The translations under genes were made by a program, and so were the position numbers. A DNA stretch of 64,000 nucleotides, from assembly GCA_963663025.1 (NCBI GenBank), contig OY760073.1:937354-1001353 (forward strand), read 5' to 3'. The DNA is from Dehalococcoidia bacterium. Its GTDB lineage: Bacteria; Chloroflexota; Dehalococcoidia; Lucifugimonadales; JAGWBF01. Of this stretch, positions 8,109-64,000 are shown piece after piece. The notes beneath the pieces are model-generated. The model worked only from the letters and a program-made list of their open reading frames with translations, was not told the DNA's origin and ran no database searches. How positions within the stretch are numbered: position 1 is the first letter of the stretch; each line of letters starts with the position of its first letter.

Positions 8109-9684
8109 TTGGAACACCCCGGCATCATATATCAGAACGCTAACCTGCTCCAGTGCGTCACGTCAGGGGTGGCGTTGCCGGACTCCGGGCTTGGTTTCGT
8201 GGCCGTAAGGGACGGGCGGATTGTGGCAATCGGTCCCGCTGAAGCAGCATCCTCGGTAAGCGACCAGGAAACCCGCATGATCGACTGCCAGGGGTACACG
8301 CTGCTTCCGGGTTTTGTCGATGCCCACTGTCACTTTCTGGCCCTTGCCAGCCGCCTGAGCGCCATCGATTGCGGGCGTGAGCGGGCGTCGACCATACCCC
8401 AGTTGGTGAACGTAATAGCGCAGGGTTCGGCTGAAGCCCGGAGCAGGAAATGGGATGGGCAGGGTTGGATCCGCGCCTTTGGCTACGACGAGTTCTACCT
8501 GGACGAGGGACGGCATCCTACCCGCTGGGAGTTGGACCAGGTGTCAATGACCCACCCACTACGCCTGGACCACAGGACGGGCCATGCCATGGTGCTGAAC
8601 AGCTTCGCCTTGGACCTGCTTCACATAACAAGGGACACTCCCGACCCTGTCGATGGCGTCATCCAACGGGACGAGGTGTCAGGGGAGCCTACCGGGATAC
8701 TCCTGGAAATGGGCCGATGGGTCAGGAAGAGGCTGGGTCATACCCGGAGTGAAGATGAGATTTGCAGGGATGCCAATGTGGCCAGCGACCTATTTCTTTC
8801 GAAGGGCGTTACGTCGTTACAGGATGCCACCCCGACCAACAGCCAGAAGCAGTGGGAGCTTTTCGCAAGTCTCAGGAGATCAGGCTGCGTGGTTCCCAGG
8901 GTGAACATGATGATGGGGGCCGGCTGCACAAACCCCGGGGACAGAGCAGAAAATGAGGCCCCGCGAAGACGCCGGGCTGCGCCTTGGAGCAGCGAAGATC
9001 ATGGCAACCCTGACCACGGGCGCCCTTCAGCCTTCCGAGGAGGATCTGAGGACGCTGATCCTCAGGGAGCACATGCAGGGCTCCCAGGTCGCCGTACACG
9101 CCGTCGAGGCTGAGGTTGTGGAAGCGGTTGCCGACGCCCTGCTGTATGCCCAAGCTGTCGCTCCCCGGCCCGATGCCAGGCACCGTATCGAGCACTGTTC
9201 CGAGTGTCCTCCTCGTGCGGTGGAAAAGATAGCCGCGACAGGGGCGGTGGTCGTGACCCAGCCGGGGTTTATCTACGATGTCGGTGATCGGTACAGCGGA
9301 CTGGCAGAGAGTCGCAACCTTCCCCACCTCTATCCTATTGCAGGCCTCGCTACCGCCGGCGTTCCCATCGGCGCGGGTTCTGACTCTCCGGTCACTTATC
9401 CTGACCCTATGGCTAGCATCTGCGCCGCCGTTACTCGCAGGACAAGGGCCGGCGCAGTTCTAGGCCGCGGCCAAGGGATATCGGTGGAGGATGCCCTGGC
9501 CATGTACACCCGGGGAGGGGCGTACGCATCCTTCGAGGAGCATCGAAAGGGCACCATGAAGGTAGGATACCTGGCAGATTTCGTGCTTCTGGAGAAGGAT
9601 CCCACCGCCGTCTTTCCGGGCGCTCTAGGGGACATACGCCCCCTGATAACTGTGATAGGCGGAGAGGTGGTCTGGGAGGCCTAG
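8109..9684 (+). pseudogene. YtcJ-like amidohydrolase (amidohydrolase_3) split by an apparent +1-nt indel
   Basis: Track ORFs 8109..9113 (frame 0) and 8953..9684 (frame 1) are the N- and C-terminal halves of one enzyme: PGFVDAHCHF... then ...HAVEAEVVEAV...RIEHCSE...VVTQPGF...GAGSDSPV. The sense of frame 0 is lost after about 8940. Frame 1 is open from 8917. The candidate indel site is G5 at 8916-8920 or CCCCGGGG at 8933-8940. Confidence 0.8.
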
Positions 9685-12530: not shown

Positions 12531-13184
12531 CTATTCCGGCGGCCACTTTGTTCCGCCAACTGCCGGGCCATCGCCTTGCCGTCGCTGAAGGCCTTTCGCC
12601 ACGACTTGCCGCATGCTGCGGGCGATGGTCCTTCCCCACTCCGGTGCGTGGTTGATCCTGTAGGAGGCCCGCTCCTGGCGTATCAGGTTGCGGGTGGCCT
12701 CGCTCATCTCGTTCACATCCTTGTTGATGTCGGGGACATTGGGATGGGAGCGCTTGATTTCGTCTTCCATGCCGTCCAGGACGGGCACAAGGTCCTGAGA
12801 GGTCTCGATGAAGAGGGCTACATGTTCCATTTCGTCCCCGTTGAAGAAAGCGAACACCGGCACAGTGCCCCGGCGGTTCTCTGGGAGAAAACTATCGGCC
12901 AGGTCAACATGGTCCGCTCGTATGAACACCCGGACTTCCATCTTGCCTGAGGCCCGGGCCAGCTTGTAAAGGACAGGCGTTGTGGAAACGTGGTCTCCGC
13001 ACCAGTCCTCGGTAAAGACGGCGACCCTGAGACGAGCGGGGATCTGGGAGAAGAACTCATTGTCTTCTGTACTAACTTCTACCCTATCCAACACCTGAGA
13101 GAAACGGTCTTTGTTTATCGCCATCCGGTCCATATGTTCCTCAGGTGTCATGCCTCGGAGGAACCCATCAGAAGTTAATGCCAT
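12531..13184 (-). CDS. thioredoxin-fold protein (single-Cys WCGD motif)
   Basis: FTEDWCGDHVSTTPVLYKLA...VPVFAFF matches a thioredoxin-like fold pattern. Confidence 0.65.
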   Translation of the reverse strand: MALTSDGFLRGMTPEEHMDRMAINKDRFSQVLDRVEVSTEDNEFFSQIPARLRVAVFTEDWCGDHVSTTPVLYKLARASGKMEVRVFIRADHVDLADSFLPENRRGTVPVFAFFNGDEMEHVALFIETSQDLVPVLDGMEDEIKRSHPNVPDINKDVNEMSEATRNLIRQERASYRINHAPEWGRTIARSMRQVVAKGLQRRQGDGPAVGGTKWPPE

Positions 13185-15099: not shown

Positions 15100-15159
15100 G
15101 ATTCTTCCGGGCGACCATGAGACAGATTGATAACAACTAAGAGAAGAGGAGGACTCCTG

Positions 15160-15624
15160 ATGGCTGCACAAGTTGGCGACACTGCCCCTGACTTCACGCT
15201 GACCTCGTCATCCAACGAGTCGGTGAGCTTGGGGCAGTACAAGGGCAACAAGAACGTTATCCTTTCCTTCCACGTTTTCAATTTCACATCTGGTTGAACG
15301 AGCCAGGCCGCCTCTTTCCGGACCAGCAACGCCCGGATCGAGGAGAAGGATGCCCAGGTTCTGGGCATAAGCGTGGACCATCCCGCATCTCATCGCGCGT
15401 GGGCTACCTCCCTGGGTGGGCTTCCCTACCCCGAGCTCTCGGACTTCCACCCCAAGGGCCAGGTGAGCCAGGCCTATGATGTCTGGAGCGAAGAGCGTGG
15501 CACCAGCGTGCGATCGGTGTTCATAATCGACAAGGGCGGCACCATCCGGTACCGCCAGACCTACTCCGCTCCCCACCTTCCCGACGTGGAGGAGATACTG
15601 GGAGAACTGGACAAGCTGGGCTAG
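15160..15624 (+). CDS. AhpE/Bcp-like 1-Cys-type peroxiredoxin with in-frame UGA (probable selenocysteine) at the peroxidatic position
   Basis: ATG 15160 lies 7 nt after AGGAGG (15147-15152). The translation is MAAQVGDTAPDFTL...KNVILSFHVFNFTSG[TGA 15295-15297]TSQAASFR...VLGISVDHPASHRAWAT...FIIDKGGTIRY. It is in the same frame as track ORF 15373..15624. The TGA replaces the Cys of the Prx T-x-x-C motif. Confidence 0.7.
15311..15343 (+). promoter_or_regulatory. candidate bacterial SECIS-like hairpin
   Basis: CCUC-UU-UCCGG-[ACCAGCAACGC]-CCGGA-UC-GAGG, giving 4+5 bp around a 2x2 internal loop. The stem begins 13 nt after the UGA. The apical loop starts 24 nt after the UGA. Confidence 0.4.
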
Positions 15625-56331: not shown

Positions 56332-57093
56332 CTACGGATGAGCCATCAGGCCGCCGTCCACGTAGATGGGCTGACCCGTAGTGTAGTCGCAGGAATCGGA
56401 CGCCAAGTACATCAGAAGGGGGCCTATGTCCCTTGGATGGCCCTTGCGCCTCAGAGGAATATAACGCACCAGCAGTTCTTTTTGAGCTTCTTCGGGGTCT
56501 AGTTCCTCGGTAGTGCTCCATCCCGTACCTATGACGTTTACGCGTATATTGCTTCGCCCCCACTCCAAGGCAAGGGCCCGTGTAAGCTGGAGGACCGCCC
56601 CCTGGCTTGCGCAGTACACCCCCGACTCAGACAGTCCTCTCTCAGCCATGTTGTCGCTTATGTTAATGATCTTACCTCCGCCCTGGGCAAGCATCTTCTT
56701 TCCCGCAAATCGGCAGAACAGGTAAACTGGCTTGAAGTTCCGGTCCATCACCCTCTGATATTCGGCCTCGCCGGTATCGGGTAGGGGCATGCTGTGCAGA
56801 GTGCGAAAAACGTTGACCAGCACATCTATCCGCTTGTGGGTTCCGAATACTTCTTCAACCAGCGCTTCCACTGAGGCCTCGTCCGATGGATTGCACAGAA
56901 AGGAACCTGATACCTGATTCAGGGAACCGAGCATCCGTTCAGTCTCCTGGATGACCCAGGACTGCCGGTCGGCAATGACCACCTTTGCCCCCGCCTCCGC
57001 CAGCGCCATGGCCATGTAGGGGGAGGCAGCATCGCCGTCCCCTGCCAGAAGGGCTACCTTGCCGGGAAGGTTAAATTCTTCTAGAACGGGCAT
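56332..57093 (-). CDS. SDR-family protein with degenerate cofactor and catalytic motifs
   Basis: SDR-like throughout, but TGxxxGxG reads AGDGDAAS, NNAG reads VNVF, and YxxxK reads YCASQ. Confidence 0.7.
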   Translation of the reverse strand: MPVLEEFNLPGKVALLAGDGDAASPYMAMALAEAGAKVVIADRQSWVIQETERMLGSLNQVSGSFLCNPSDEASVEALVEEVFGTHKRIDVLVNVFRTLHSMPLPDTGEAEYQRVMDRNFKPVYLFCRFAGKKMLAQGGGKIINISDNMAERGLSESGVYCASQGAVLQLTRALALEWGRSNIRVNVIGTGWSTTEELDPEEAQKELLVRYIPLRRKGHPRDIGPLLMYLASDSCDYTTGQPIYVDGGLMAHP

Positions 57094-57156
57094 ATTCTTG
57101 TGCTCTGTATAACGTCTCCGGGGTTGCAGCGTTAGCACGCCAAGTTGTGGTGGGGG

Positions 57157-57960
57157 TCATTCGACTTTACCCCGGATAGTGTGGCCCGTCGGTGCGATTC
57201 CAGCAGCCAGTCCGCCCCCGTCCAGGGTGATGATCTCGCCGTTCATGTAGTCCGAGGCTGTCGAGGCTAGGAACACGGCAATGGGGCCAATGTCCTCGGG
57301 CAGCCCTAACCGTCCCGTGGGTATGGTAGCCCCCGAAGAGGGCAGGACGCCTTCCATGGCTTCCACGCCTTCCGTCGGGATGAATCCAGGAACGATGGTG
57401 TTGGCAGTTACGCCGTGCCTTGCCAGGCTAATGGCCAGCGTGCGCGTTAGCTGGATCATCCCGCCCTTGCTGCAGGCGTAGGCGTAAATGTCCCGGCCTC
57501 CCCGCATTCCGAATCCGGAAGCAACGTTGATGATCTTGCCTTGCCCCCGCTCTACCATGTGGCGTGAGACAGCCCGGGCACAGAAGAAGGCCCCGGTCAG
57601 GTTTACTTCCAGGCCGCTCCTCCATTCGTCGTCGGAGATGTCCCAGATGGGCAGTTGAGCGTTTTCGGAGGTACGCCCGGCGTTGTTCACCAGGACGTCT
57701 ATATTGCCGAACTCATTCAGGACTTTCGCCACCATGTCATTGACTTGGGAGGAGTCGCTGACATCTGTGGATATGGCCATGGCCCTTCTGCCGTGATCGC
57801 GCACCTCCTGGGCCGCCCTCTCCAGGGGCGCTTGCCTCCGGGAAGTTATTGCGATGTCCGACCCGGCTCGGGCCAGCGCTCGCACCATGGCCAGCCCCAA
57901 GCCAGTCCCGCCGCCGGTAACGATGGTTGTCTTCCCGTCAAGGCTCAAGCGTTCCAGCAT
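57157..57960 (-). CDS. SDR-family oxidoreductase (FabG-like, canonical motifs)
   Basis: VTGGGTGLGLA, VNNAG, YACSKGG and PGFIPT. The ATG shares one nt with the birA stop (TGATG). Confidence 0.85.
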   Translation of the reverse strand: MLERLSLDGKTTIVTGGGTGLGLAMVRALARAGSDIAITSRRQAPLERAAQEVRDHGRRAMAISTDVSDSSQVNDMVAKVLNEFGNIDVLVNNAGRTSENAQLPIWDISDDEWRSGLEVNLTGAFFCARAVSRHMVERGQGKIINVASGFGMRGGRDIYAYACSKGGMIQLTRTLAISLARHGVTANTIVPGFIPTEGVEAMEGVLPSSGATIPTGRLGLPEDIGPIAVFLASTASDYMNGEIITLDGGGLAAGIAPTGHTIRGKVE

Positions 57961-58790
57961 CAGGCAACCTCAAAGGCCGTTGGCCTCGCCATAGTTACTT
58001 CTCCTGCCTGCAGGACCCTGGTCTGGCCGTCTGCCAGCTTCAGCACCAGGTTCCCAATCTCGTTTACGTCCTCGGCAATGCCTCGACAGACATCATCCTG
58101 CCAAGCTACTTCCACGTGTTGGCCCAGCGTGTTCAGGCAGGAGCGGTACTCATCGAGAATCCTGGGAGATTCCGGCTCGGAATCGTCAGCCGGTGGGGCC
58201 GTTTTCTCCAGCTCAAGGTACAGGGCATCCATCTCCTGAAGCAGGTTGCGTAACAGGGGCCCTCGTTCCACTTGCATGCCGGTTTCGAGGGCAAGACTGG
58301 TGGCAGTGTGGGAGATATCAGGCATTACCGATGGGTCGAGGGCAACGTTGATGCCGATTCCCACGATAGCGTATTGCATCTGGCCTGCCAGGTACGATGG
58401 CTCGACAAGTATGCCGCAGAGCTTCTTTCCACCCACAAGCACATCGTTGGGCCACTTCAGGCGCGCTTCCAGCGGTGTGGTCTTGCTAACAGCCCGTACC
58501 ACCGCCACTCCCGCTAGCATGCTGATATATCCGGCTGAGGCCTCGCTAGGTCTCAGTATGATCGACAGGGACAGGTTTCCCCCGGGGGACACCCATTGTC
58601 TGGAAAAGCGACCCCGAGCCGCCCACTGCTCTTCGGCCACCACCACCGTACCGTCCTCAGCGCCACTATCAGCCAGGGCGGACGCTTCATCCATGGTAGA
58701 TGACACGCGCTCGTAGTGGAGGATGCGGCGGCCGATGGTCTGGGTGTAGATGCCTTCCTTCATCATGGAAGACAGCCAAGAGCTGGACAC
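57960..58790 (-). CDS. birA: biotin--[acetyl-CoA-carboxylase] ligase
   Basis: GRFSRQWVSPGGNLSLSIIL...KWPNDVLVGGKKLCGILVE. GTG 58790 lies 6 nt after GGAG. Confidence 0.88.
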   Translation of the reverse strand: MSSSWLSSMMKEGIYTQTIGRRILHYERVSSTMDEASALADSGAEDGTVVVAEEQWAARGRFSRQWVSPGGNLSLSIILRPSEASAGYISMLAGVAVVRAVSKTTPLEARLKWPNDVLVGGKKLCGILVEPSYLAGQMQYAIVGIGINVALDPSVMPDISHTATSLALETGMQVERGPLLRNLLQEMDALYLELEKTAPPADDSEPESPRILDEYRSCLNTLGQHVEVAWQDDVCRGIAEDVNEIGNLVLKLADGQTRVLQAGEVTMARPTAFEVA

Positions 58791-58822: not shown

Positions 58823-59258
58823 TCGTGGACCGAACAGGACTATAAGCCGGGTTCTGTGCGCGGACGTTACCGCCTGCGTGGCGACCATCTATCTAGGTCC
58901 CCCGTTGCCGAGGGACTCAAGCAGCCAACCCGGGAACGGGCCGGGCGCCCGTGGTTCCCCTATTCGGCCTTGCTCCAGGTGGGGTTTGGCCGCTGAACTG
59001 TCGCCAGCCCAGCCGGACGCTCTTACCGTCCGATTTCACCCTTACCGGTACCTTCCAGATGCTTCAAGAAAGGCTTGCTTTCCTATTGGCAAATCGAGGG
59101 GATTACCCGGCGGTGTGTTTCTGTGCCACTTTCCGTCATCCCTTTAGCTGCTAGAGCTTCCGGAATGCCTGGGCGTTACCCAGCACCCTGCCCGGAGGAG
59201 CCCGGACTTTCCTCTCCCCCAGAAAACTGGGGCAGCGGTCACCCGTCCTGCTCAGTCC
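58823..59258 (-). ncRNA. rnpB: RNase P RNA, bacterial type A
   Basis: On the minus strand I read GGAGAGGAAAGUCCGGGCUCC (plus 59197-59212 region) and ACAGAACCCGGCUUA (plus 58843-58857), the universally conserved P4 strands. Also present are GGUAACGCC, GGUAAGGGUGAAA and AGCAAGGCC. P1 pairs GGACUGAGCAGGAC (5', plus 59245-59258) with GUCCUGUUCGGUCC (3', plus 58827-58840). The ends are good to a few nt. Confidence 0.9.
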
Positions 59259-60277: not shown

Positions 60278-61282
60278 GTGATTGGAACTATCGTGAACGA
60301 AGCTATTAATTCATTTTTGAACTATCTGGTAGTGGAGAAGGGATTCTCCAGAAACACCCAGGATGCTTACAAGAACGACCTCAACCAGTTCGTCGACTAC
60401 GCCCAAGGAGGCGCCAACGGTTCAAACGGATCCAACGGTACCAACGGCTCGTGCTACAGCTGGAGGCAGGTCGATCTCAACCTTCTGACGGATTACGTTT
60501 CAAGCCTGAGAAAAAAGAAGGGCTACAGCGAGACTACAACGGCTCGGAAGGTGGCAACCCTCAAGTCATTCTTCAACTTCCTAATACAGGAAGAGGCCAT
60601 CGATCAGGACCCATCGGAATTCCTGAGTATCCCCAAGGTTGGCCGGAATCTCCCCAAGTTTCTCACCGAGGAAGAGGTGCAACGGCTGCTCCAGCTTGCA
60701 GATGCCGGTACATCTCCGGAGGACTCCAGGGACAAGGCTATCCTCGAGCTCCTATATGCCACAGGGCTTCGTGTTTCGGAGCTGATATCTCTGGACATCC
60801 ATGACGTAAACATCAAGGACGGCTATGTTCGATGCTTCGGCAAGGGAGGCAAAGAACGTATCGTTTACATCTACCCAAGGGCGGCCGAGACACTGGGCGC
60901 GTACCTGGAAAATGCCCGGCCTTCGCTCCTGTCCCACGGACACAATGGGAACCACCGGGGCAACGGTGGCCGCCCTTCGTCCAACGGTGTGGACAAGCGC
61001 GAGGAGAAGGCTCTATTCCTGAACCGCCGTGGAGACAGGCTGACCCGGCAGTGGATATGGGTGATTCTGAAGAATTACGCCGAGAAGGCGGGGTTGAAGA
61101 AGACCCTGACCCCCCATACCCTTCGCCACAGCTTTGCCACTCACATGTTGAGGGGAGGAGCATCTCTGCGTCACGTCCAGGAGCTTCTTGGACATTCCAG
61201 CATCACCACCACGCAGATATACACCCACCTGACGAACGAGCATGTGCGCCGGGAGTTTGACCGTAGCCATCCCAGGTCGTAA
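60278..61282 (+). CDS. xerD: site-specific tyrosine recombinase XerD/XerC-like, with two Asn/Gly-rich insertions
   Basis: FLNYLVVEKGFSRNTQDAYKNDL...ATGLRVSEL...HTLRHSFATHML...LLGHSSITTTQIYTH (R..HxxR..H..Y). The GTG start is uncertain (60278 or 60293). Confidence 0.8.
   Translation: MIGTIVNEAINSFLNYLVVEKGFSRNTQDAYKNDLNQFVDYAQGGANGSNGSNGTNGSCYSWRQVDLNLLTDYVSSLRKKKGYSETTTARKVATLKSFFNFLIQEEAIDQDPSEFLSIPKVGRNLPKFLTEEEVQRLLQLADAGTSPEDSRDKAILELLYATGLRVSELISLDIHDVNIKDGYVRCFGKGGKERIVYIYPRAAETLGAYLENARPSLLSHGHNGNHRGNGGRPSSNGVDKREEKALFLNRRGDRLTRQWIWVILKNYAEKAGLKKTLTPHTLRHSFATHMLRGGASLRHVQELLGHSSITTTQIYTHLTNEHVRREFDRSHPRS
60416..60451 (+). repeat. 4 x 9-bp in-frame tandem repeat (AACGGNNCN) encoding NGS-NGS-NGT-NGS
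   Basis: aacggttca aacggatcc aacggtacc aacggctcg, inside the xerD N-terminal domain. Confidence 0.85.
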
Positions 61283-61814: not shown

Positions 61815-61849
61815 TATTGCATTGGCCGATGAAGAGGGGAGGAAGTATC

Positions 61850-62176
61850 ATGCCCCAAAGAGGAAAGAGTAGGCGGACGGCCGCACGCCAGACCCAGCTA
61901 GGCCAGCGTAAGCGGAGGCAGACCAGAGGACCTTCTGGCACTCCTGCAACGCCGGAACCGAAACCGGCGTCTGAAGCGGTATCCGTTGCTGCCGAGGGCG
62001 TAAGCGTTGATGCGCTTTCCATGCCCCAGCCTTCCCCCCAAAGGCAAAGCTCGCCTCGTACATCTGAGGCGCGCCCCGCCGTCTATGCCTACGTGGCCCC
62101 GGAACTAAGGCGCATCCTGGCGTTTTCAGGCGCCACCCTGGCCATACTGATCGCCCTAACCTTCGTCCTGAGGTAG
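61850..62176 (+). CDS. small hypothetical tail-anchored membrane protein (Arg-rich N-terminus)
   Basis: MPQRGKSRRTAARQ... with a C-terminal TM segment ILAFSGATLAILIALTFVL. ATG 61850 follows GGGGAGGAAG. Confidence 0.45.
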   Translation: MPQRGKSRRTAARQTQLGQRKRRQTRGPSGTPATPEPKPASEAVSVAAEGVSVDALSMPQPSPQRQSSPRTSEARPAVYAYVAPELRRILAFSGATLAILIALTFVLR

Positions 62177-62181
62177 CCACA

Positions 62182-64000
62182 TTGGACCGCCGGGAGTTTG
62201 CCCATCGCCTGAGGATCACCCCAGGTAAGCCGGGCGTCTATCTGCTGAAGGATGCAGCCCAGCAGGTCCTCTATGTAGGCAAGGCCAGTAACCTCAGGTC
62301 CCGCGTAAGCTCCTACTTCGGCTCTCCCCATGGCCTCAACCCCAAGATACAACGCTTGGTGGAGCGGGTTGCAGACTACGAGTTCATCGTCACCGATACC
62401 GACGCCGAAGCTATCATCCTCGAATGCACCCTGATAAAGAAGCATCGTCCTACCTATAACGCAAGGCTGAAGGACGATAAGAGCTACCCCTACCTGAAGA
62501 TCGACCTTGCCGAAGATTTCCCCCAGGTGTACATCACGCGCAGGGTGCGTGAGGACGGCGCACGCTACTTCGGGCCCTTCGCCACTGCGGGAAGCGTTCG
62601 CAAGACCTTGGACCTTCTGAAGAAGCTCTTTCCCTATCGTTCCTGCACCAAGCCCATCACCGGGTCAGACCCCAAGCCATGCCTCGAATACCACATCGAC
62701 CGTTGTGTCGGCCCCTGCATAGGGGCTGTGGACAAGGAGGGGTACCGCCGTGTCATAGAGCAGGTGATCCTGTTCATGGAGGGCAAGATCGAGGGGGTTG
62801 TGGATGAGCTCCACCTGAGGATGGTCAGCGCAGCCGAGATGCTGGAGTTCGAGCGGGCGGCGGTCCTAAGGGACCAGATTCGGAATATCCAGAAGACGGC
62901 GGAAGAGCAACGGATTAAGGTGGCGTCCAATGCTGTCCAGGATATGGATGCCATAGCAATGGCACAGGGGCAGGACGAAAGCTGGATCGAGGTGTTCTTC
63001 GTACGGCAGGGTAAGCTTACCGGACGGGACCACTTCATCATGGAAGGGACCCAGGATGATTCCCCCGGGCATGTGTTGGCCGAGTTCATCAAACAGTTCT
63101 ACCAGTCGGCCTCCTTCCTCCCAAGGCGAATAATCGTGCAGCACACCCTGGAAGATGAATCTCAGATCCAGTCTTGGCTTAGGGAAAAGAAAGGCCGCGC
63201 CGTCACCCTTGCCAGGCCGCAGCGAGGCGACCAACACCGGCTCATCCGGATGGTTGCAGAAAACGCATCTCAGGGGCTGTCGCAGAGGCGGGCCAAGTGG
63301 TTGGCCGACACCGACGCCGTACAGCAGGCGATGCTGGAGCTTCAGGAAGAACTCAACCTGCCCAATGTGCCCCGTCGTATAGAGTGCTACGACATCTCCA
63401 ATATCCAGGGCACTAACTCGGTGGCGAGCATGGTCACATTCCAGGACGGCTTCCCTAAGTCCGCCCACTATCGCACCTTCAGAATTAAGGGTGTTGAGGG
63501 AATAGACGACTACTCCAGCATGCAGGAAGTGCTGCGTCGGCGCTTCCAGAAGCTGGCGGCTGTCCAGGGAAAGGGCCAATCCCGGGAAGATGCTCAGGCA
63601 CTGGCGTCGGCGGATTCCGCGCCCAAAAAGGCGCAGGAGGCCTCTTGGAACATCGTACCCGACTTGGTGTTGATCGACGGGGGCAAAGGGCACCTCTCCG
63701 CCTCTCTGGAGGTGTTTCTGGAGCTTGGTATAGACTTCATCCCCCTCGCGTCCCTTGCCAAGGAGAACGAATGGGTCTTCGTACCGCAGACTCCCGAACC
63801 CATCGTGCTGGCGCCCAACTCCCAGGGCTTGTATCTGGTGCAGAGAGTGAGGGACGAGGCCCATCGATTTGCTATCACTTATCACCGAAAGCTCCGCAGC
63901 AAAGGCAGCGTAGCTTCGGCCGTGGACTACGTTTCGGGCATAGGACCAAAGCGAAAGCGGATGCTCCTGCGCCGGTTCGGTTCCCTCAAGGCGATCAAGG
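62182..64000 (+). CDS. uvrC: excinuclease ABC subunit C (3' end outside window)
   Basis: This gene is not in the ORF track because it has no stop in the window. I translated it by hand from TTG 62182 (GAGG 8 nt upstream) and the frame stays open to nt 64000. It has a GIY-YIG domain (PGVYLLKD...VLYVGKASNLRSRVSSYF...IVTDTDAEAIILECTLIKKHRPTYN), a UVR domain (FERAAVLRDQIRNI), then ...RVRDEAHRFAI... and a C-terminal HhH beginning GIGPKRKRMLLRRFGS. Confidence 0.92.
   Translation, partial: MDRREFAHRLRITPGKPGVYLLKDAAQQVLYVGKASNLRSRVSSYFGSPHGLNPKIQRLVERVADYEFIVTDTDAEAIILECTLIKKHRPTYNARLKDDKSYPYLKIDLAEDFPQVYITRRVREDGARYFGPFATAGSVRKTLDLLKKLFPYRSCTKPITGSDPKPCLEYHIDRCVGPCIGAVDKEGYRRVIEQVILFMEGKIEGVVDELHLRMVSAAEMLEFERAAVLRDQIRNIQKTAEEQRIKVASNAVQDMDAIAMAQGQDESWIEVFFVRQGKLTGRDHFIMEGTQDDSPGHVLAEFIKQFYQSASFLPRRIIVQHTLEDESQIQSWLREKKGRAVTLARPQRGDQHRLIRMVAENASQGLSQRRAKWLADTDAVQQAMLELQEELNLPNVPRRIECYDISNIQGTNSVASMVTFQDGFPKSAHYRTFRIKGVEGIDDYSSMQEVLRRRFQKLAAVQGKGQSREDAQALASADSAPKKAQEASWNIVPDLVLIDGGKGHLSASLEVFLELGIDFIPLASLAKENEWVFVPQTPEPIVLAPNSQGLYLVQRVRDEAHRFAITYHRKLRSKGSVASAVDYVSGIGPKRKRMLLRRFGSLKAIK

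Follow-up and report, generated by a model that had tools for sequence, protein, structure and literature searches.

The DNA analysed here, called the window throughout, is a stretch of 64,000 nt from a Dehalococcoidia bacterium (contig OY760073.1, positions 937,354 to 1,001,353 of the forward strand). It carries a peroxiredoxin reading frame with an in-frame TGA (15160–15624), and this is very probably a functional gene whose product has selenocysteine (Sec, U) at position 46, specified by UGA. Starting at the ATG at 15160 the frame encodes the N-terminal peptide MAAQVGDTAPDFTLTSSSNESVSLGQYKGNKNVILSFHVFNFTSG; after 45 sense codons, closing in FNFTSG, it reaches TGA at codon 46 (15295–15297), and then continues in the same frame through 108 further codons (TSQAASFR...KLG) as far as TAG at 15622–15624. 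Including the TGA codon the product has 154 residues. The ATG is preceded by a consensus Shine–Dalgarno (SD) sequence, AGGAGG, and 61 of 81 orthologues have an SD-like motif ahead of the corresponding ATG. An earlier note, made from the sequence of the window alone, had described the SD at a 7-nt spacing from ATG 15160, the in-frame TGA and the frame remaining open to 15624 to give 154 residues, and all of these can be read directly in the sequence. The features of the gene are collected in Table 1.

Table 1. Features of the peroxiredoxin gene, in window coordinates
Feature	Position	Strand	Basis and remarks
Shine–Dalgarno sequence AGGAGG	15147..15152	+	Direct reading; 7-nt spacer to ATG 15160
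AhpE-type peroxiredoxin open reading frame, ATG...TGA46...TAG (predicted)	15160..15624	+	154 codons, read by translation
TxxU active-site motif, T43-S44-G45-U46	15286..15297	+	TGA 15295–15297 is the proposed Sec codon
SECIS-like hairpin (predicted)	15311..15343	+	RNAfold; outer stem 15311–15314/15340–15343, inner stem 15317–15321/15333–15337, apical loop 15322–15332 (11 nt)
83-aa C-terminal fragment, output of automatic gene calling in place of the whole gene	15373..15624	+	List of open reading frames
Arg118 codon, catalytic Arg conserved in peroxiredoxins (equivalent to AhpE Arg116)	15511..15513	+	Alignment to AhpE

The gene is not recognized as a whole by automatic procedures. A mechanical list of open reading frames (ORFs) over the locus contains fragments only (15127–15297 and 15373–15624), and in a near-identical public chromosome (OZ220675.1) the gene is annotated as two adjoining ORFs of 45 and 83 aa, the C-terminal 83-aa product being identical to that of the window and the 154-aa product 98% identical. 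The gene is thus broken by automatic calling, as the earlier note had said it would be.

When Cys is put for the TGA, the product matches the Pfam AhpC-TSA profile (PF00578) with 116.8 bits (gathering cut-off 26, E = 7e-34), residues 5–131 corresponding to profile positions 1–123 of 124. In a sequence search of the PDB the seven best matches are all Mycobacterium tuberculosis AhpE (Rv2238c), with E values from 1e-27 to 1e-29, followed by another class of peroxiredoxin at 5e-18. A structure model was made for P0002, a natural Cys-form orthologue 67% identical in sequence that stands in for the window protein (predicted local distance difference test score, pLDDT, 92; predicted template modelling score, pTM, 0.88). 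The best 12 Foldseek matches to this model are all chains of AhpE, with template modelling (TM) scores of 0.85–0.95 and root-mean-square deviations of 1.3–2.2 Å. The peroxiredoxin model of NCBIfam for PrxU (NF040737, peroxi_PrxU, 233 positions) gives 65.3 bits, below its cut-off of 270, and no NCBIfam peroxiredoxin model scores the window protein at or above its own cut-off. Since AhpE is the best match and the PrxU model falls so far under its cut-off, the product is assigned on sequence to the AhpE type (1-Cys subfamily) of peroxiredoxin and not to the PrxU type. Of the earlier description as AhpE/Bcp-like, the AhpE part stands on both the PDB matches and the fold; the likeness to Bcp is weaker (E ~1e-15).

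The proposed Sec lies at the expected catalytic position. On alignment with AhpE, U46 corresponds to the peroxidatic Cys45, T43 to Thr42 and R118 to Arg116, and the TGA column coincides with the peroxidatic Cys of distant homologues, so that the TGA falls exactly where the earlier note had placed it. The Thr, Cys/Sec and Arg columns are conserved in alignments of the family, with Arg118 invariant or nearly so. In the P0002 model residue 46 lies in the first turn of helix α2 (residues 44–62), two residues past its start.

Other elements of the active site depart from those of known peroxiredoxins. The PxxxTxxC motif lacks its Pro; in place of this, Val39, following His38, aligns with AhpE Pro38. 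The sequence LSFH[VI][FL]xFTxG[U/C] (15271–15297 in the window) is found in all 85 loci L001–L085, in Sec and Cys forms together, while distant homologues have Pro, which is nearly universal at this place in peroxiredoxins. The top match in the PDB search is 5C04, an engineered F37H mutant of AhpE that has the same His as this whole clade. Not a single Cys codon occurs in the frame of the window protein. Position 72 (codon 15373–15375) is Cys in most orthologues among L004–L080 (GISCD) and Val in the window, L001, L002 and L003 (GISVD), and Ala51 stands at the place of the Bcp resolving Cys, five residues after the peroxidatic position (Cp+5), as the earlier note had observed.

Relatives were found in a scan with one genome per species, in which 578 were confirmed and the best 80 of the 578 were examined. 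These 80 loci (L001–L080) come mostly from metagenome-assembled genomes (MAGs) of Dehalococcoidia/Chloroflexota, with Entotheonella and one ‘Proteobacteria’ MAG in addition, and their proteins are 57–98% identical to that of the window. TGA occupies the equivalent of codon 46 in 80 of 80. In the window, L001, L002 and L003, which are 91–98% identical, the gene is intact, and the TGA, the hairpin stems described below and both halves of the protein are kept. Four other loci (L081, L082, L084 and L085) are Cys forms, with TGT or TGC at the codon. The earlier note had proposed that orthologues should have either TGA or a Cys codon here, which is what is found; the observations do not agree with the picture that it gave as contrary to a selenoprotein, namely TGC in close relatives whose flanks are otherwise identical and which have no structure downstream.

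Protein databases bear the mark of the same TGA. A search returned about 14 full-length homologues followed by a long tail of proteins of 88–104 aa that span the C-terminal 56–67% of the query, and about 100 of 120 homologues among the matches listed are such C-terminal fragments. Such a tail would be expected if a stop stands at this position in most relatives. Eight full-length proteins from public metagenomes (P0001, P0004, P0006–P0008, P0010, P0013 and P0014) have Trp at the catalytic position (FTSGWT). For one of these, P0006 (locus L083), the DNA has TGA and the record is not reproduced by translation under genetic code 11; the catalytic Trp of this record is spurious, having arisen from gene calling with genetic code 4. 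Within L001–L080 TGA is the closing stop of 14 of the 80 peroxiredoxin ORFs, compared with 33% of the long ORFs in the same loci; the trend is weak, and points to these genes mildly avoiding opal as their true terminator.

Both sides of the TGA appear to be maintained as protein. The ratio of nonsynonymous to synonymous divergence (pN/pS) is 0.32 over the 40 codons upstream of the TGA and 0.25 over codons 21–100 downstream, indicating purifying selection on both. Past the TGA there is no conserved SD or start codon from which translation could restart; an in-frame ATG is first met 39 codons downstream, and 15 loci lack it. Elsewhere in the window TGA is an ordinary terminator. It ends ~19 of 61 ORFs (~31%), including those of a polyprenyl synthase, GARS, adenylosuccinate lyase (ADSL) and SAICAR synthase, each of which matches its Pfam profile to the end.

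The RNA downstream of the TGA is predicted to fold, at a distance of 14–48 nt, into a hairpin that resembles a selenocysteine insertion sequence (SECIS). This was examined in an ungapped alignment of 81 sequences, sliding the 3′ partners by 1–3 columns as a control. The specified pairs form in 86% of cells compared with 18–55% in the slid controls, for a hairpin that was drawn by eye from the same sequences used to score its pairing. Three of the pairs show compensatory changes, among them a change of GC to CG at columns 27–39, seen in 11 sequences. Both arms code for conserved residues (FR and R-x-EE). Because the hairpin was derived from the sequences being tested and its arms code for conserved residues, a coding-aware control was used, in which 45-nt segments along the gene were folded and compared with versions resampled over synonymous codons. 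The segment beginning 12 nt past the TGA is the single outlier, with a mean Z of −2.32 and values under −1 in 98% of sequences; no other segment along the gene has so low a mean energy, and the next most negative segment has a mean Z of −1.39. The earlier note had expected structure after the TGA, and this one segment is where it lies. For the sequence of the window itself Z is −1.8 to −2.2 against synonymous nulls. Synonymous divergence is reduced in the hairpin region (pS 0.50 compared with 0.68–0.69 elsewhere). By these comparisons of sequence the downstream hairpin is conserved and appears to be under selection.

The bacterial SECIS (bSECIS) consensus has an apical loop of 3–9 nt with G at loop position 1 or 2, an upper stem of ≥4 bp, 16–37 nt between UGA and loop, and a minimum free energy (MFE) of ≤−7.5 kcal/mol (PMC13188914). 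The hairpin of the window lies within these limits in its UGA–loop spacing (24 nt), MFE (−16.5) and stem (5 bp). Among the orthologues the spacing is 22–30 nt and the MFE −11 to −26 kcal/mol, in agreement with the consensus almost universally.

Use of Sec is documented in the lineages that carry the gene. In BSepDB, restricted to species with the Sec pathway, two Dehalococcoidia MAGs are in the top ten, with 49 and 46 selenoproteins (PMC13326102). Most bins of sponge symbionts, across phyla, contain SelA and SelB together (PMC5649159), and Entotheonella chromosomes are reported to have a full set of Sec genes, with SECIS elements 12 nt past the UGA (PMC11703216). At the level of the lineage, the literature argues that the genome from which the window derives probably has the Sec machinery.

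A number of results weigh against Sec insertion at this codon. ARAGORN finds no tRNA in the 64-kb window and no tRNA-Sec in 60 of the loci, and tblastn with E. coli SelA, SelB and SelD (queries identical to PDB 8UZW, 5LZB and 3U0O) finds none of the three in the window or in the 10 kb flanking each of the 80 loci on either side. Genes for the Sec machinery are not expected to be linked to the gene of a target selenoprotein. Nor did screens for a further selenoprotein (ORF pairs, codon-usage scoring, composition-filtered BLAST for Sec/Cys pairs over 1.65 Mb, and intergenic N-terminal CxxU/UxxC motifs) turn up anything convincing in the window or in the DNA that flanks the loci; their power is low, as the flanking DNA of one locus mostly has no homology to that of another. 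The most promising candidate for read-through, at 56332–57969 on the reverse strand, was rejected; it comprises two tandem genes of the short-chain dehydrogenase/reductase (SDR) type in one frame, separated by TGA and ~20 codons, of which the second has its own ATG (MPVLEEF...).

The hairpin also has features that count on this side, beside the manner in which it was drawn. In the window it lies outside the bSECIS consensus in two respects, with a loop of 11 nt and no G at either of its two opening positions, and the window clade (window, L001–L003) has the most atypical loop of all. With the stem held fixed only 25 of the 81 sequences agree with every bSECIS feature that was scored. Consensus folding with RNAalifold did not recover the hairpin unaided, and Rfam at gathering thresholds gives no SECIS match in the whole window; a permissive scan of 15230–15420 returned chance-level matches only, to miRNA and others. 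A canonical SECIS is missing in 12.6% of the selenoprotein entries of BSepDB (PMC13326102). Neither is the hairpin cleanly specific to Sec. Of the Cys forms, L081 and L084 no longer show excess structure (Z = +0.2 and +0.5), whereas L082 and L085 keep it (Z = −3.1 and −1.8). L082 (10001–10462) is placed among the TGA forms, and L085 (3001–3417) is divergent at its C-terminus and probably frameshifted. The structure in L082 and L085 may be what is left of a SECIS where Sec was recently exchanged for Cys; with three independent lineages the comparison of Cys forms is weak evidence either way. Lastly, the motif Pro is replaced by Val, and peroxidase activity of the protein is assumed.

Some of these results would suit a different decoding of the codon. 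In programmed or leaky read-through a near-cognate or suppressor tRNA might read the UGA as Cys, Trp or Gly, and the hairpin would then be a stimulator of read-through and not a SECIS. This would agree with the lack of Sec machinery in the DNA examined (the window and the flanks of the loci), with the loop size and missing loop G of the window hairpin, and with the lack of a SECIS match in Rfam. Yet the peroxidatic position works with Cys or Sec only, and for Cys a TGT or TGC would suffice, as in the natural Cys forms. The many ordinary genes of the window that end at TGA speak against general suppression, the carrier lineages are documented users of Sec (PMC13326102, PMC5649159, PMC11703216), and TxxU peroxiredoxins are established as selenoproteins (PMC1088965). 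We therefore regard such decoding as very unlikely, and infer that UGA46 is read as Sec and not as another residue. It is also conceivable that the family is a true selenoprotein family of which the window gene is a non-functional relic, either the machinery having been lost or the divergent hairpin being dead. A frameshifted amidohydrolase in the window attests some gene decay or assembly error nearby, and the atypical 11-nt loop with no early G belongs to just this clade. However, a relic would hardly be expected to remain intact at 91–98% identity across the window and L001–L003 with its TGA, stems and both halves kept, nor to retain a hairpin region at Z = −1.8 to −2.2 against synonymous nulls; the probability of this explanation is correspondingly slight.

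A nonsense mutation leaving a pseudogene, a sequencing error, or a pair of small proteins (45 aa and ~83–108 aa) would each match the automatic annotation of the locus. A mutation or error would have to recur in 80 of 80 independent assemblies at 57–98% identity. Two separate proteins would call for a start past the TGA, where the first in-frame ATG is 39 codons away and not always present and no SD is conserved, and neither half alone forms the peroxiredoxin fold; both halves are under purifying selection. Reassignment of TGA to sense throughout the genome (genetic code 4 or 25) is suggested by FTSGWT in several database proteins. The entries with Trp have TGA in their DNA and are not reproduced under code 11 (for P0006 the DNA bears this out), an enzyme with Trp or Gly as its peroxidatic residue would be inactive, and ~31% of the ORFs of the window end in TGA, some with Pfam profiles matched to their last positions. 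A conserved TGA, selection on both halves, no site of restart and normal TGA stops elsewhere together exclude pseudogene, sequencing error, two peptides and genome-wide reassignment for all practical purposes; we give scarcely any credence to the first three, and the chance of reassignment is likewise vanishingly small.

If the gene is a Sec-peroxiredoxin, translation would start at the SD-preceded ATG at 15160, and the hairpin at 15311–15343 would draw SelB with Sec-tRNA(Sec) to UGA46, leading to insertion of Sec in place of termination. In the folded enzyme Sec46 would be located in the first turn of helix α2, beside Thr43 and Arg118. Its selenolate would attack the hydroperoxide and become a selenenic acid, which would then be recycled by an external thiol partner, such as a small thiol or a protein resembling thioredoxin or glutaredoxin. 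The external reductant would be needed because the window protein is devoid of Cys. No operon partner is conserved across the 80 loci, synteny being confined to the nearest relatives. Two genes upstream of the peroxiredoxin, at 12531–13184 on the reverse strand, is a Thioredoxin_9 (PF14595) gene that is syntenic in 6 of the 80 loci and has no NCBIfam match; its product could be the reductant of the peroxiredoxin.

Several other features of the window were observed. A 1-nt indel near 8940–8950 divides the Amidohydro_3 gene (8109–9684, forward strand) into a pair of ORFs, 8109–9113 and 8953–9684, that overlap in different frames; in the three closest relatives (L001–L003) the gene is an intact ORF of 524 aa. 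Either the gene has decayed to a pseudogene or the source of the window was wrongly assembled here. RNase P RNA of bacterial class A is encoded at 58827–59254 on the reverse strand (275 bits, full length), and a tyrosine recombinase of the XerC/D type at 60278–61282. In the RpiB gene that comes after the recombinase, the conserved N-terminus KIRIAVGSD precedes the first ATG, GTG or TTG (61425), and so translation of this gene likely starts at a rarer start codon. The ORFs across 61848–63885 (~2 kb) have no Pfam match.

The window gene adds a member to the TxxU peroxiredoxins, a selenoprotein family that is long known and abundant in bacteria (PMC1088965, PMC2398784, PMC1794560). There are 43 such sequences from the Sargasso Sea (PMC1088965) and 253 in data of the Global Ocean Sampling (GOS) (PMC2398784), and Sec-peroxiredoxins account for 91 selenoproteins in 78 sequenced organisms (PMC5029168). 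The family (pfam00578/COG1225), described in the surveys of Zhang, Gladyshev and colleagues and in BSepDB, has the AhpC/TSA domain with Sec in place of the peroxidatic Cys in TxxU, homologues of Cys form and a stem-loop immediately past the UGA; it is abundant in marine bacteria and systematically mis-annotated. All of this is shared by the window gene. It differs in having HVFxFTxGU, characteristic of its clade, where the family has PxxxTxxU, and in a hairpin that is partly off the bSECIS consensus. Its finer points, of possible interest to specialists, are the AhpE type, Val for Pro, the lack of Cys, the atypical loop and a Sec that is nearly fixed in Dehalococcoidia and Entotheonella.

Among individual proteins, AhpE of M. 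tuberculosis (1XXU, 1XVW, 4X0X) is the closest solved structure by sequence and by fold. It is of the same length (~153 aa), has its peroxidatic residue, Thr and Arg in register and likewise lacks a resolving Cys, but has Cys45 and Pro38 where the window protein has UGA/Sec46 and Val39 after His38. AhpE is reduced by mycoredoxin-1/mycothiol, and to our knowledge that system is not expected in Chloroflexota. PrxU of Eubacterium acidaminophilum is a biochemically characterized Sec-peroxiredoxin, also with Sec inserted at UGA in the peroxidatic position; unlike the window protein it belongs to another subfamily, of the Prx1/AhpC type, with ~200 aa or more. As the precedent that the earlier note had made of it, PrxU shows Sec-peroxiredoxins to be established, and is not a close relative (65 bits against 270). 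E. coli Bcp/PrxQ belongs to the same superfamily, is of similar size and is covered together with the window protein by COG1225, but its PDB match is weaker (E ~1e-15 compared with 1e-29 for AhpE) and its resolving Cys is Ala51 here. A search of the literature, which did not cover the BSepDB entries themselves, found no paper specifically on a Sec-containing AhpE.

The gene may perhaps represent a distinct clade of AhpE-type selenoperoxiredoxins, with near-fixed Sec in marine and sponge-associated Dehalococcoidia and Entotheonella, an active site remodelled with His-Val, a Cys-free sub-clade that includes the window, and a non-consensus SECIS; this broader proposal we put forward as doubtful. 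If it were true, Sec would sit in a different catalytic environment, and there would be a reductant not yet known and a SelB with altered recognition of the loop. Sec-peroxiredoxins and SECIS-directed recoding in bacteria are textbook subjects, and so no new mechanism is opened by the gene. The earlier note had thought this AhpE-like member and its host lineage worth documenting, which holds for the annotation and less so for novelty, TxxU peroxiredoxins having been catalogued since 2005 and Dehalococcoidia MAGs being already listed as rich in selenoproteins (PMC1088965, PMC2398784, PMC13326102).

The practical value of the finding lies in the correction of a pervasive error of annotation. In essentially all public genomes with the gene it is mis-called, either as pieces of 45 aa and 83–104 aa or with a spurious catalytic Trp, and as a consequence antioxidant capacity and dependence on selenium are under-counted in abundant marine Dehalococcoidia and SAR202-like bacteria and in sponge symbionts. 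As a natural 1-Sec peroxiredoxin, free of Cys and lacking the motif Pro, the protein would also offer a clean system in which to study the benefit of Sec and the reduction of a selenenic acid where there is no resolving thiol.

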